Origin: an uncultured virus (IMG/VR IMGVR_UViG_3300005613_000039) | Taxonomy: Duplodnaviria; Heunggongvirae; Uroviricota; Caudoviricetes | IMG/VR virus record: IMGVR_UViG_3300005613_000039 | DNA length: 20,000 nucleotides | Direction: 5' to 3' (one strand) | Shown: positions 13,383 through 18,255 of the stretch, one piece after another | How positions within the stretch are numbered: position 1 is the stretch's first letter | Layout: every line of letters starts with the position of its first letter | Notes under the pieces: generated by a model | The model's database searches: none | The model's input: only the letters and a program-made list of their open reading frames with translations | Told to the model about the DNA's origin: nothing | Position numbers and translations under genes: made by a program

Positions 13383-13413
13383 GGCTTAACCCCTTTCTTA
13401 TTTACTTAATTAA

Positions 13414-13441
13414 AGTATACACTATGTTAAATGTTTATCAA
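13414..13441 (-). promoter_or_regulatory. Sigma70-like promoter TTGATA-N16-TATACT
   Basis: Consensus match at the head of the leftward gene block. Confidence 0.55.
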
Positions 13442-13449
13442 CCCTTGCA

Positions 13450-14340
13450 AGTAATTATTTTTTATACTTAACTTGTTGTGTTTCAATAACTTATGATAAA
13501 TACTAAAAATAATTTAAAATAAATTTGTAATTAATTCATAAATGTACCTGTTTAAATAAATGCTATGTATTCTCCTTTTATCTAATTATCTTTTATTTAA
13601 TGCTAGTAATAAATAAATTACACTATACAATTAAATAATAAAAATCTATCTATTTAAATAATTGCTATACATTATTAATAAACGCTTATTTGCTTCAGTA
13701 TAATACAGTAATAAACAAAGTAATTAGTATAATAATTGTAAAGTATTGTATAAGAATAAGTTATAGAAATAATACACACATTTGTGTGTATGTTACTTAT
13801 ACAGATAATTAATCATTAATTAAATTTAATGTAAAGTATTGAGACAGAGAGAGTTTGAAGAAAGTTGTATTTTAATAAAGTATACACACATTTAAGGGGT
13901 ACTATGAAATTATAATACAATGATTATAAGATGTTAAACTTTGTTTTATTTCAACAAGTTATAAACATTTTGAGCTTTATAATATAATTAATCGTTTAAT
14001 ATATCGAGTACGGGTCTTATTTCGCAAGTTTTGACTATTTATTATAATCTATAGCACCCTACCTCCAACTCGCTAAATTAAAAAATAAACTTAACCTCTT
14101 ATATTACACTCGTTTAAATAATAAATAATTAATTCTTTTGTCGCAAATAATATATACTTTTTGTTACAAATAAACATTTTTTGAGCTTTAATTTATTGTT
14201 AGTGAATAAGGGGAAATTGAGCAAAATATACATGAATTTTATTAATTCGGAGCAAATATAGTATAAATATATAGATTTTTAATAAAATATATACACTAAA
14301 TATGCAAGAAATGCAGGTTTAAATGTATAATTCTCGATTT
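13450..14340. other. AT-rich non-coding divergent control region (candidate origin, terminus or recombination region)
   Basis: No credible ORFs; coding strand switches here; contains several IHF-like 25-mers, a palindrome at 13772-13791 and direct repeats at 13961/14170. Confidence 0.6.
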
Positions 14341-14346
14341 AATCAC

Positions 14347-14376
14347 TTGACAAGAATATAATTCGTATGTTATACT
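14347..14376 (+). promoter_or_regulatory. Sigma70-like promoter TTGACA-N18-TATACT with extended TG
   Basis: Perfect -35; followed by an AGGAG SD and ATG at 14418. Confidence 0.8.
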
Positions 14377-14417
14377 TTATATATGAGAAATTATAAATTT
14401 AATTTAGGAGAAAGACA

Positions 14418-14582
14418 ATGACTAAAAAAAGAGTTTATATAACAGGAACAGAGTATAACGGTGTGATTATACCACTGGGGTTCTCAAAGACATTAAAGTA
14501 CGCAAAGAAAATAGCCAAACGTCATAAAGATAAAATATATAAACTTATTGAGGTAACAAATGAGCTAACCTGGAAGGAGTGA
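14418..14582 (+). CDS. Hypothetical protein (54 aa, MTKKRVYITG...)
   Basis: Manual translation; AGGAG SD. Confidence 0.7.
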   Translation: MTKKRVYITGTEYNGVIIPLGFSKTLKYAKKIAKRHKDKIYKLIEVTNELTWKE

Positions 14583-15908: not shown

Positions 15909-16524
15909 TAGTCATGCAGAAGAGTCTAATATTAAAATTCCGGAATGTGATTTATTGATTTGTGCAGAAGATTATGATATAAGAACTCTTGATCATTTAG
16001 AACAATTAAATGGCTGGTTCTATAATCAACCAGCTAAGAAAATTGTCTGGATTGCAGGAAATCATGATTTTTATTGCGAGAAAATTTTAAAAGAGTCTAT
16101 TAACGAAATAGTTAATAATGCTATCTATTTAGAAAACGATTCTGTTACAATTAATGGTTTGAAAATTTGGGGTTCACCTTATTCTGTCATTTTTCATAAT
16201 CAGGCATTTATGTTGCCTGATAATGAATTAGCTAAAATTTGGGCAAAAATCCCAAGTGATACTGATATCGTGATTACACATGGTCCGCCATATGGAATTT
16301 TAGATCAGGTATGTGTTGCGAGTGGAAATTTTAAAGAGAATGCCGGAAGCCCTTCTTTAAGAAATAAAATAAAAGAAATAAAACCTAAATATTTTATTTG
16401 TGGACATATTCATTCTGCATATGGTACATATACAGACGAAAATATCATCTATATTAACGCTTCTTTGATGAATGATAACTATGACGTAATTAATAAACCG
16501 ACTATAATTGATTATGAAAACTAA
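15886..16524 (+). CDS. Calcineurin-like metallophosphoesterase (239FB/MPPED-like)
   Basis: ISDSH, AED (in place of AGD), AGNHD, GSPY, THGPP, GHIH, INAS. Start revised to MKLCLISD. Confidence 0.92.
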   Translation: MKLCLISDSHAEESNIKIPECDLLICAEDYDIRTLDHLEQLNGWFYNQPAKKIVWIAGNHDFYCEKILKESINEIVNNAIYLENDSVTINGLKIWGSPYSVIFHNQAFMLPDNELAKIWAKIPSDTDIVITHGPPYGILDQVCVASGNFKENAGSPSLRNKIKEIKPKYFICGHIHSAYGTYTDENIIYINASLMNDNYDVINKPTIIDYEN

Positions 16525-16948
16525 AATTTGTTCAATATACAAACAAGAGAAAGAATTATTTGAGTTTTCTTTTCGTAAAGATTGTCAAAGATATCGCAAT
16601 TCTTGTAAAAAGTGTCGTAATTTACAGCAGAAAAAATATGTTAAAAATAATAAAAATTTGATATATTTCAAACGACGAGAATTTTATAACAGATATTCTT
16701 GGATGCGATCATATTATGCTCTTAGACATCGATGCAATAACCCAAATGCCTCGGATTATAAATATTACGGAGGACGGGGGATTAAATGTTTCATAACAAA
16801 AGAAGAAATCAAGCAATTATGGTTTCGTGACGAAGCATATAAAATGAAGAGCCCAAGTATTGACAGAATTGATAATAATGGACATTATGAATATAGTAAT
16901 TGTAGATTTATAGAATTAAGTGAAAATATTTCAAAAAAATGGAATTAA
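16514..16948 (+). CDS. HNH-like homing endonuclease (YGGRGI family)
   Basis: RC.NPN..DY.YYGGRGIK, SIDRIDNNGHYE.SNCRF; degenerate N-terminal Zn finger (CSIY...CKKC). Confidence 0.85.
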   Translation: MKTKICSIYKQEKELFEFSFRKDCQRYRNSCKKCRNLQQKKYVKNNKNLIYFKRREFYNRYSWMRSYYALRHRCNNPNASDYKYYGGRGIKCFITKEEIKQLWFRDEAYKMKSPSIDRIDNNGHYEYSNCRFIELSENISKKWN

Positions 16949-17022: not shown

Positions 17023-17052
17023 TTGACAAACTCTATTTTCATATGTTATACT
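17023..17052 (+). promoter_or_regulatory. Sigma70-like promoter TTGACA-N18-TATACT with extended TG
   Basis: Same architecture as the promoter at 14347-14376. Confidence 0.8.
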
Positions 17053-17058
17053 TATAAG

Positions 17059-17411
17059 AGAGAGTATAAATGGAGAAAGTGTTTTTTCTATTTATCTAAC
17101 TTCTTTATTTTCAATTAGTTACGAGAAAATTACTCTTTTTTTGATTCTTATTAAGTTTGAAAAAAGTTATAAAACCGTTTGAAGTAGCACTTCAATAAAA
17201 ATAATAAAGCTTTGTGTTTACGGTCACTTATAAAGGTCGAGGCCAAATTCGACTTCGACCACCACATTTCTTTGATAGAAGCCAAATGCTTCTATCCCAA
17301 TGATTTGCAAATCACAACAAAATAATTACGAATGGTATAACTCTGTCTATTTTGATGAATATAGAGAAATGAGATAAAACTGTATCTACTCTTTTACGAG
17401 TAGATTTTTTT
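17059..17411 (+). ncRNA. Candidate structured non-coding RNA or long 5' leader
   Basis: Bounded by a consensus promoter and an intrinsic terminator; no substantial ORF; at least four hairpins/palindromes in 17179-17314. Confidence 0.5.
17384..17411 (+). terminator. Intrinsic terminator
   Basis: ATCTACTC-ttttac-GAGTAGAT followed by TTTTTT. Confidence 0.75.
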
Positions 17412-17427
17412 ATGTAAAGGTTTGGTA

Positions 17428-18255
17428 ATGAACGACTTGCAAAAAGAAATAAGACGTTTAAGTAATCTCAAACAAAATCGAAAAAAAGATCAAATTACTA
17501 TTGAGCAGATGGCTCAAAAAAATCTTTGGTTAAAACAAACTAATATTTCTGAGCGATTCACAGATTTAAAAGATCAGAAATTGGCCGAAAAAATATTCGA
17601 GAATTATTTAAGCAATTATACTTTTGAGTCGTATACTGATGTTCAAAATGTAGCTGATTTGGTTTTCGAGGAAATTACCAAATTAAAAATTCAGCAACAA
17701 ATCTCAGGAATTAATGCCGATAAAAATACAAAATTCGTTCCAGATAGATTAATCGACTCTTTACATAAAATTGAAGATAAAATTTATGTATTGAAAGAAA
17801 AGGCAGGAATTGTAGGCACAAAAGAGCAAGATGATCTAACTGCTTACGAGGCGGCAGAAAAAAAATTTAAGACTTATATAGCTTTTAATCGCAACGAATT
17901 CACTTTTTGGGCTCCCATAGTTTGCGAAGACTGTGGAAGCAAAAAAGTTAAGCCGGTTTTGATTCGACGAAGATGTAATAAAGAGAATTTTGAGATTTTA
18001 AAGCATCCATTCTTTTCTGGACGATTTTATTATAATCGAAGAGGCATTGAATTAGTAAAGTCTGAAATTTGGACAAAAGAACAATATGCTTGGGTTTTTC
18101 AAACTTCAGTTAAATATGTAAATTGGTGCATTGAAAATGAAAATAAGATTGTTGAAATTGATGATGTGGAAGAGAAAGAAATTCAAGATTTTATAAATAA
18201 CTGTGAATATCTAAAATCAGAAAAAATACCAGATAAAATTTTAAAAGATAAATAA
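17428..18255 (+). CDS. Hypothetical protein (275 aa), first gene of the putative structural block
   Basis: Long ORF; AAAGG SD before the ATG at 17428; one CxxC; no function recognised. Confidence 0.85.
   Translation: MNDLQKEIRRLSNLKQNRKKDQITIEQMAQKNLWLKQTNISERFTDLKDQKLAEKIFENYLSNYTFESYTDVQNVADLVFEEITKLKIQQQISGINADKNTKFVPDRLIDSLHKIEDKIYVLKEKAGIVGTKEQDDLTAYEAAEKKFKTYIAFNRNEFTFWAPIVCEDCGSKKVKPVLIRRRCNKENFEILKHPFFSGRFYYNRRGIELVKSEIWTKEQYAWVFQTSVKYVNWCIENENKIVEIDDVEEKEIQDFINNCEYLKSEKIPDKILKDK

Follow-up and report, generated by a model that had tools for sequence, protein, structure and literature searches.

A conserved pseudoknot-hairpin RNA leader with an SD-less reading frame ending at an intrinsic terminator precedes the structural genes of uncultured phages

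Two neighboring hairpins, each followed by CCA, are almost certainly parts of a conserved RNA element that is read from the (+) strand of an uncultured phage genome and that leads into the phage structural genes. The hairpins were singled out in an initial annotation of a 20,000-nt stretch of DNA, hereafter the window, taken from IMG/VR record IMGVR_UViG_3300005613_000039. From its 5' to its 3' end the leader consists of a promoter, a pseudoknot with an inserted hairpin, a variable linker, the second of the two hairpins (hairpin 2), CCA, a reading frame opened by ATG, the stop codon of that frame, an intrinsic terminator, a Shine-Dalgarno (SD) sequence, and a gene encoding a 275-aa protein. 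Because the CCA runs into an invariant ATG and a frame that ends at an intrinsic terminator, the hairpins belong to a leader concerned with terminator control. On the basis of its sequence features we suggest, with about even confidence, that the leader is a ribosome-gated attenuator of the pyrBI/pyrE kind, which would gate transcription into the structural genes. The coordinates of its parts are listed in Table 1.

Table 1. Features of the leader, numbered from the first nucleotide of the window.
Feature	Position	Strand	Remarks
Sigma-70-type promoter TTGACA-N18-TATACT, TG upstream	17023-17052	+	11 of 12 consensus matches
5' pseudoknot domain (H-type)	17170-17228	+	covariation
Helix a/a'	17174-17178 with 17220-17224	+	97.6% of cells paired; 4 of 5 pairs compensatory
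Hairpin P2	17179-17195	+	folds in 37 of 37 distinct sequences, with many different stems
A-rich joiner	17196-17213	+	between P2 and b
Helix b/b'	17214-17216 with 17225-17227	+	99.3% of cells paired; 3 of 4 pairs compensatory
Hairpin 1 and ACCA	17235-17264 (arms 17235-17242 and 17253-17260; ACCA 17261-17264)	+	8-bp stem with one G-T; 10-nt loop
Hairpin 2 and CCA	17274-17299 (arms 17274-17282 and 17288-17296; CCA 17297-17299)	+	9-bp stem; 5-nt loop CAAAT
Mini-ORF	17300-17377 (stop 17375-17377)	+	25 codons and TAA; ATG invariant, frame open in the family
Spacer AACTGT	17378-17383	+	stop to terminator stem; sequence conserved across most loci
Intrinsic terminator	17384-17411	+	8-bp stem, 6-nt loop, T-run
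SD AAAGG and 275-aa gene	17416-18255 (SD 17416-17420; ATG 17428)	+	first gene of the structural cluster

The genes for RtcB, an integrase, a clamp loader, and a DUF932 protein are located on the (-) strand of the window. An operon on the (+) strand, with genes for a metallophosphoesterase and an HNH endonuclease among its members, begins at position 14418. Both hairpins lie in a gap of 480 nt between the end of the HNH gene at 16948 and the start codon of the 275-aa gene. The latter heads the structural cluster, the next genes of which encode cement-, tail-fibre-, and LamG-like proteins, and the order of the genes is identical in the longer relatives. Promoters of the form TTGACA-N18-TATACT occur only twice in the window, namely that of the leader at 17023-17052 and one at 14347, which drives the (+) strand operon. 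A similar promoter is found 5' of the RNA core in 30 of 41 loci, with the end of its -10 element positioned 11 to 279 nt before the core. A divergent, AT-rich region of 1 kb (13400-14400) separates the block of (-) strand genes from that of (+) strand genes, and within it a palindrome with a perfect 8-bp stem (13772-13791) scores as a terminator on both strands.

A DNA search with the window against 50,697 phage records returned no relatives, and the exact pattern of hairpin 1 had no matches in viral_contigs (IMG/VR). The 275-aa protein likewise had no relative in viral_contigs and none by tblastn against the phages, a search in which the gene that follows it gave partial matches only. In the metagenomes, 109 homologues of the protein were found. 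Alignment of 41 of these (A1) brought in 74 metagenomic loci, designated here by L numbers, with upstream regions that are plainly homologous to the gap in the window. The core alignment, A2, holds 35 of 41 core sequences, two distant ones and near-duplicates having been left out. A covariance model, R1, was built on A2, and the Infernal alignment, A3, comprises 41 distinct rows. Searching 76 sources with R1 yielded 47 full-length copies, two copies cut by contig ends, and one further weak row that is probably false. There is never more than one copy per locus, and every copy lies 5' of the homologue of the 275-aa gene and on its strand. The 26 sources lacking a match mostly contain too little upstream DNA; the others are distant relatives (L054-L056 and L060-L067) whose upstream regions look different. 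In L060-L067, at about 31-33% identity, the element is absent and a different conserved upstream block, TTTAGGGTAAACTCTCCYATT..GTCAAG, is present.

Wider searches added no further members. A degenerate pseudoknot pattern gave at least 116 matches in viral_contigs; among the 80 loci examined, R1 returned only five weak matches (26-28 bits), which by eye are coding-like or terminator sequences and were put down to chance. In genome_contigs, one contig of 3 kb carries an HNH gene that abuts the gene homologue, leaving no space for the element, and one additional match was spurious. Searches of Rfam 15 with the window (E up to 10) and with eight related loci (E up to 1) gave chance-level rows only. 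The element represents a structured RNA family with good support and with no entry in Rfam.

The core of the element starts with the conserved TTTAAAAC. Strand a' is placed inside the loop of b/b', which makes the 5' domain an H-type pseudoknot. In A2, 96.5% of the cells of all helices are paired, versus 37-41% when the partners are slid by one to three columns. Compensatory changes are found in 16 of the 18 pairs, and the observed score was reached by none of 500 shuffles. The covariation result is reproduced in A3, and RNAalifold predicts b/b' and hairpin 2 independently. The columns of hairpin P2 are mis-registered between two classes of sequence in both alignments, and thus P2 was judged from single-sequence folds. 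The cells include 33 G-U combinations versus four A-C combinations, the latter being the would-be wobbles on the (-) strand; hence, the structure is that of the (+) strand RNA. The fold of the full leader has a z-score of -4.3. Both the structure and its strand are direct observations. The conserved TAAAACTGT that lies 5' of the terminator was considered as an alternative partner for a' and was rejected, as by eye it stays constant where a/a' covary.

Both hairpins of the initial annotation were located exactly where it had placed them, and the differences between their stems in the window preserve the pairing, as it had claimed. Folding of an 86-nt stretch yields precisely these two hairpins (-25.4 kcal/mol, z = -5.0), and none of 200 shuffles folds as well; for the (-) strand, z = -4.0. 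The proposal that the structure is under selection is borne out in the relatives. Hairpin 2 is universal in the element, with 94.6-96.2% of its cells paired and compensatory changes in all nine of its pairs across 35-41 distinct relatives, and hairpin 1 displays three compensatory pair changes. The loops of hairpin 2 vary (UAUAU, UAAAU, CUAAGU, and others). The CCA that follows it is found in 36 of 40 distinct rows, the remainder having ACA (two) or CCG (two), and is positioned either directly after the 9-bp stem or after an 8-bp stem and a C or U. The base between the stem and the CCA is unpaired in seven of 41 rows, and a U precedes the 5' side of the stem in 90% of the rows.

Hairpin 1, by comparison, is an optional, lineage-specific insert in the linker. 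Among the 36 distinct linkers that join the pseudoknot to hairpin 2, ten contain a hairpin 1 of the window type, nine contain no hairpin (7-11 nt), eight contain an unrelated GGGAWTTG...CAATTCCC hairpin, and nine contain other hairpins. The MAFFT alignment of hairpin 1 (A4) is mis-registered, and a formal count was therefore not made on it; read directly from the sequences of the ten window-type loci, the pairing is kept through three double changes. The tails in these loci are ACCA (three), ACAA (three), ACAG, CAAT, GCCA, and ACTC (one each), and the loops of the relatives are TTTAA, CTCGA, CAAA, and others. The initial annotation had likened hairpin 1 to an acceptor stem with a discriminator A, a CCA end, and TTCGA in the loop. 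The relatives do not support the tail and loop of that likeness, with ACCA in three of ten loci and TTCGA in the window only. Of the tail and loop sequences expected to be conserved in homologous loci, the CCA after hairpin 2 is indeed retained, whereas the ACCA of hairpin 1, TTCGA, and GCCAAAT are not. The last of these is shared by both hairpins of the window, as had been noted, and is peculiar to it; its seven matches in the window, versus 3.4 expected and with seven or more in eight of 200 shuffles, are weak evidence when taken alone.

The CCA recurs at other hairpins of the family. Indeed, in another subclade it lies 1-4 nt after the unrelated GGGAWTTG hairpin in all eight loci. There is no conserved UGG within the element with which it might pair, nor does the CCA have to mark the 3' end of an RNA. 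The helix of phi29 pRNA contains a CCA bulge, as described in PMC3479190. An analogous extension of hairpin 2, with the CCA bulged and the AUG paired, has 72% of its cells paired and one compensatory pair, which amounts to no real covariation, and there is no Rfam match.

Directly downstream, 0-2 nt 3' of the CCA, lies the ATG of a short reading frame (the mini-ORF), the three columns of which are 100% conserved. The frame is open in all 41 distinct loci, with lengths of 8-25 codons and at least 16 codons in 37 of them, and stops soon interrupt the other two frames. When the nucleotides are shuffled, the probability of a given frame remaining open is P = 0.07-0.31; summed over 29 diverged but related sequences, log10 P is -22.4, a figure that overstates the significance because these sequences are not independent. 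A stop codon within 45 nt of the first T-run is found for frame 0 in 32 of 37 loci and for the other two frames in 9 and 6 of 37, a few of the T-runs being mis-detected. An SD-like 4-mer at -20 to -4 precedes the mini-ORF in only three of 38 loci, and a stable hairpin lies 3-5 nt 5' of its AUG.

Among the relatives, differences fall with similar frequency on each of the three codon positions (67/52/53 and 204/231/189) and are mostly non-synonymous (96 versus 12 synonymous in one group and 308 versus 33 in another). What is conserved is thus the frame with its start and its end, and not the peptide. There is no codon-position signature of coding, so that the argument for translation is built on the ATG, the absence of stops, and the spacing. 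The pattern of differences fits a frame in which translation, and not the peptide, matters. A small hairpin is found near the 3' end of the mini-ORF in relatives such as L003, L022, L027, and L029 (CTATTT..AAATAG or CTTTY..RAAAG), with an exchange of T-A for C-G between subclades; in the window it has 4-5 bp (17346-17365). It could be a polymerase pause hairpin.

The terminator that follows is the only convincing (+) strand intrinsic terminator of the operon. A similar one is present in 37 of 38 loci, with none detected by the script in one locus. The distance from the stop codon to the terminator stem is 6 nt in the window; its median is 7 nt, and it does not exceed 15 nt in 35 of 37 loci. 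The frame ends inside the terminator hairpin in three loci, and 21-23 nt from the stem in two loci with early stops. An SD and a start codon are positioned after the T-run in 37 of 38 loci, with the SD beginning about 10-45 nt past the T-run. This interval is too short for a promoter, and the downstream operon has no other visible one. TAAAACYGT was tried as a general promoter-like motif and discarded, having 16 matches versus 16.8 expected. The AACTGT spacer shows no covariation with a' and does not recur as a general motif in the window. The invariant ATG, the open frame, and the spacing between stop and terminator are, like the RNA structure, features of the sequences themselves.

The proposed attenuator would operate as follows. 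The leader RNA would start at the host-type promoter at 17023-17052, and its core folds into the H-type pseudoknot, the optional hairpin 1, and the conserved hairpin 2. The SD-less AUG at position 17300, following hairpin 2 and its CCA, opens the frame of 25 codons. A ribosome close behind RNA polymerase would, upon reaching the stop codon of the mini-ORF, cover the 5' arm of the terminator. The terminator hairpin would then be unable to close, and the polymerase would enter the structural operon. Without that ribosome, a leader of roughly 350 nt would be terminated and released. The folded domain abutting the AUG would set the loading of the ribosome, possibly under the influence of a phage or host factor. 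Translation of the mini-ORF, suppression of the terminator by it, control of initiation by the 5' domain, and any regulatory input are what we infer from the arrangement. The spacing is consistent with work on the lambda terminator tR2 in E. coli: PMC4824070 reports almost full repression of tR2 at 5-8 bp after the stop codon of a translated frame, recovery of about 90% efficiency beyond about 30 bp, and loss of repression without translation. The median distance of 7 nt falls inside the repressed range given there. Prevention of intrinsic terminator hairpins by a coupled ribosome is also described in PMC5021804. Inspection of the leaders by eye revealed neither a regulatory codon run nor an alternative antiterminator pairing. 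The attenuator model leaves the CCA, the AACTGT spacer, and the strength of the pseudoknot conservation unaccounted for.

In the pyrBI and pyrE attenuators the proximity of a ribosome suppresses an intrinsic terminator. The leader resembles those of pyrBI and rph-pyrE of E. coli in that a translated frame would end next to or inside an intrinsic terminator that precedes the regulated genes. It differs from them in preceding a phage structural operon, in having an SD-less leader ORF located after a conserved pseudoknot and a hairpin with CCA, and in that no nucleotide-sensing pause run was identified. The pyrBI work is cited by the tR2 study (PMC4824070). The leader-peptide attenuators of the trp/his type likewise place a short leader ORF and a terminator ahead of structural genes; here, unlike in these, inspection by eye disclosed neither a run of regulatory codons nor a conserved antiterminator alternative, and the peptide is not conserved. 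Leaderless, SD-less short ORFs in mycobacteria act as attenuators of downstream operons, according to bioRxiv 10.1101/834739. Those ORFs, as described there, lie at the 5' end of the transcript and carry runs of Cys codons, whereas the present AUG is located about 240 nt into a folded leader. With respect to initiation, the start codons of rpsA and fis lack a true SD and, as stated in PMC4408793, are served by hairpins and AU-rich single-stranded segments that lie 5' of them. In the present leader the SD-less AUG similarly comes after an A-rich joiner and hairpins, although there is no likeness in sequence or structure, and the element differs further in its pseudoknot and in the hairpin positioned 3-5 nt before the AUG. 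By analogy, the pseudoknot/hairpin 2 domain most likely governs ribosome loading in the manner of the folded AU-rich leaders of rpsA and fis.

Several other explanations were weighed against the ribosome-gated attenuator. The lambda nut (boxA/boxB) and HK022 put sites are promoter-proximal RNA structures that precede a terminator which must be passed for expression of later phage genes, and the position of the present element is similar. In a processive antitermination site of the nut, put, or EAR type, whether factor-dependent or RNA-only, the pseudoknot and hairpin 2 would serve as the binding site for RNA polymerase or a phage antiterminator, leaving the mini-ORF a secondary role. Such a reading accommodates a conserved folded RNA flanked by a consensus promoter and a strong terminator where a nucleotide-metabolism/HNH cluster gives way to the structural genes, and also a pseudoknot conserved far above the need of a plain ribosome-occlusion device. 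It does not account for the invariant ATG, the preserved frame, or the tight spacing of stop to stem. In addition, the element occurs as a single copy per locus with no second copy as in nut and put, its hairpin 2 loops are not boxB-like, no two-hairpin fold of the put type was found, and Rfam gave no match to any antitermination RNA; a further difference from nut and put is the linkage of an ORF and its stop to the terminator. We regard an antitermination site as unlikely, if still worth considering. The boxB/nut-type binding hairpins suggested in the initial annotation thus survive as a likeness in purpose, that of a terminator-control leader, with no evidence for a protein site of the boxB type. 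The same annotation had suggested tRNA mimics, and it is the CCA that bears most directly on this idea. A hairpin with (N)CCA could serve as a minihelix for RNase P, which would cut at the 5' base of the stem, or for tRNA 3'-processing or charging enzymes, and such processing would give rise to small RNAs or a new mRNA 5' end. The near-constant CCA after hairpin 2, the unpaired base that in some rows precedes it in the manner of a discriminator base, the U 5' of the stem, the CCA after every GGGAWTTG-type hairpin, and an NCCA after four of ten window-type copies of hairpin 1 all point in this direction, as does the RtcB encoded by the phage. Since the element contains no conserved UGG, a partner acting in trans is indicated, and this together with the recurrence of CCA after non-homologous hairpins keeps the reading alive. 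Cleavage by RNase P of hairpin model substrates and of the phage RNAs C4 and M3 is reported in PMC11143913, and an RCCA-dependent cleavage of a pseudoknot substrate in PMC12710915. The likeness to RNase P hairpin substrates (minihelices with a 3' RCCA and the C4 RNA of phages P1/P7) extends to a stem followed by (N)CCA and a U before it; unlike in these substrates, the stem is 8-9 bp, there is no T-loop, and the CCA is internal with an AUG directly after it. The loops, which are 5-7 nt, were judged against the T-loop consensus, and no conserved T-loop was found. As the initial annotation had expected, ARAGORN called neither a tRNA nor a tmRNA, whether in the window or in 38 related loci, and Rfam gave no tRNA-like match. 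Furthermore, the ACCA of hairpin 1 is variable, the CCA of hairpin 2 lies inside the transcript with the invariant ATG and its ORF directly 3', and duplication of hairpin 2 with its flank would equally explain CCA after two hairpins. The tRNA-mimic reading is thereby weakened, with the conserved CCA after hairpin 2 as the part that stands, and as an explanation of the leader it seems rather improbable. In a variant coupled to attenuation, the unit of hairpin 2, (N)CCA, and AUG would be a true tRNA-acceptor mimic that is recognized by the machinery of tRNA processing or of translation and functions as a start device, either because a cut of the RNase P or RNase E type could leave a leaderless AUG or because the hairpin could dock at the usual place of the SD helix. 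Judged from the sequences, this variant also appears unlikely, albeit conceivable. If true, the phage would need no SD to load a pioneer ribosome and, through it, to open the terminator before the late genes; the element would represent a new class of structured, SD-independent initiation element, with the pseudoknot as the sensor of a phage or host signal.

Alternatively, the leader might be an independent small RNA of about 350 nt that acts in trans on targets of the host or the phage and lies close to the operon merely by synteny. Its own consensus promoter, its strong terminator, and the well-folded full leader would suit such an RNA, and attenuator RNAs can double as trans-acting small RNAs, as described in PMC6614838. 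The small RNA reading is at odds with a downstream operon that has no other visible promoter and an SD placed shortly past the T-run, does not account for the ORF and the spacing of its stop, and sits poorly with an HNH insertion in L008 and L009 that left leader, terminator, and SD together; it strikes us as quite improbable. A site acting at the level of DNA, such as a packaging/terminase recognition site or an origin next to a small-terminase-like gene, would draw on the 275-aa protein, the fold of which weakly resembles those of small terminases (HK97 TerS, TM 0.5 at E about 1; several BFVD rows labeled 'terminase small subunit' at E 0.2-1), and on the HNH gene beside it. These fold matches are non-significant, however, the next genes are tail-fibre/LamG-like with no large terminase among them, and the wobble asymmetry of 33 versus 4 and the covariation of the pseudoknot indicate an RNA. 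A DNA-level site is thus very improbable.

The 275-aa protein belongs to no Pfam or PHROG family. Its AlphaFold model has a pLDDT of 74 and gave no fold match at E 0.001 or better; the predicted fold bears only a weak, non-significant resemblance to small terminases. The protein (17428-18255) contains an invariant CxxC, and many of its Arg and Phe residues are conserved; one of its homologues is labeled RNA polymerase beta' by its source.

HNH genes are found at various positions around the leader. In the window the HNH gene (16508-16948) lies before the promoter, in L004, L013, and L073 it abuts the core, and in L008 (2251-2937) and L009 it has taken over the SD/start position of the homologue of the 275-aa gene. 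Despite each of these insertions, the leader, the terminator, and the SD stay together. HNH endonuclease genes around the leader are also present in L064 and L075. The locus looks like a homing hot-spot, the HNH genes being placed as expected of homing endonucleases around a conserved sequence.

Ribosome-gated attenuation is a known kind of mechanism; what appear to be new are the RNA family, the SD-less start formed by hairpin, CCA, and AUG, and the place ahead of phage structural genes. A full-text literature search, taken at the level of titles and abstracts, disclosed no case of leader-ORF attenuation of late or structural genes in phages. The element sits at the switch from early/metabolic to structural genes in a widespread group of uncultured phages. 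If ribosome gating is correct, these phages would use leader-ORF attenuation for their late genes, and the leader would show in nature how initiation can be efficient at an AUG that lacks an SD and adjoins a hairpin with CCA and a pseudoknot. Measuring about 240 nt from core to terminator, the element could serve as a compact, translation-dependent gate for transcription.

Additional small features recur in and around the leaders. Short SD-bearing ORFs occur between the promoter and the RNA core: a frame of nine codons in the window (17071-17100), one for a hydrophobic peptide of 26 aa in L008 and L010 (L008, 1904-1984), and one for a peptide of 16 aa in the leaders of L003 and L005. A hairpin-like motif, GTAACYT-ATTTAATATCAAT-ARGTTAY, is found in the window at about 17096-17122 and in L047, L050, L019, L060, and L072, within some leaders and ahead of the promoter in others. 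It might represent a terminator, or alternatively a protein site, common to these phages. A second recurring hairpin, CCTCTGAAGTCGCCAAGCGTCTTTAAG, with a loop of the CCAAG/CCAAA type, is present in L014, L033, L042, L007, L038, L039, L016, and L027 at varying places in or before the leader, and in this respect resembles a small mobile insert.
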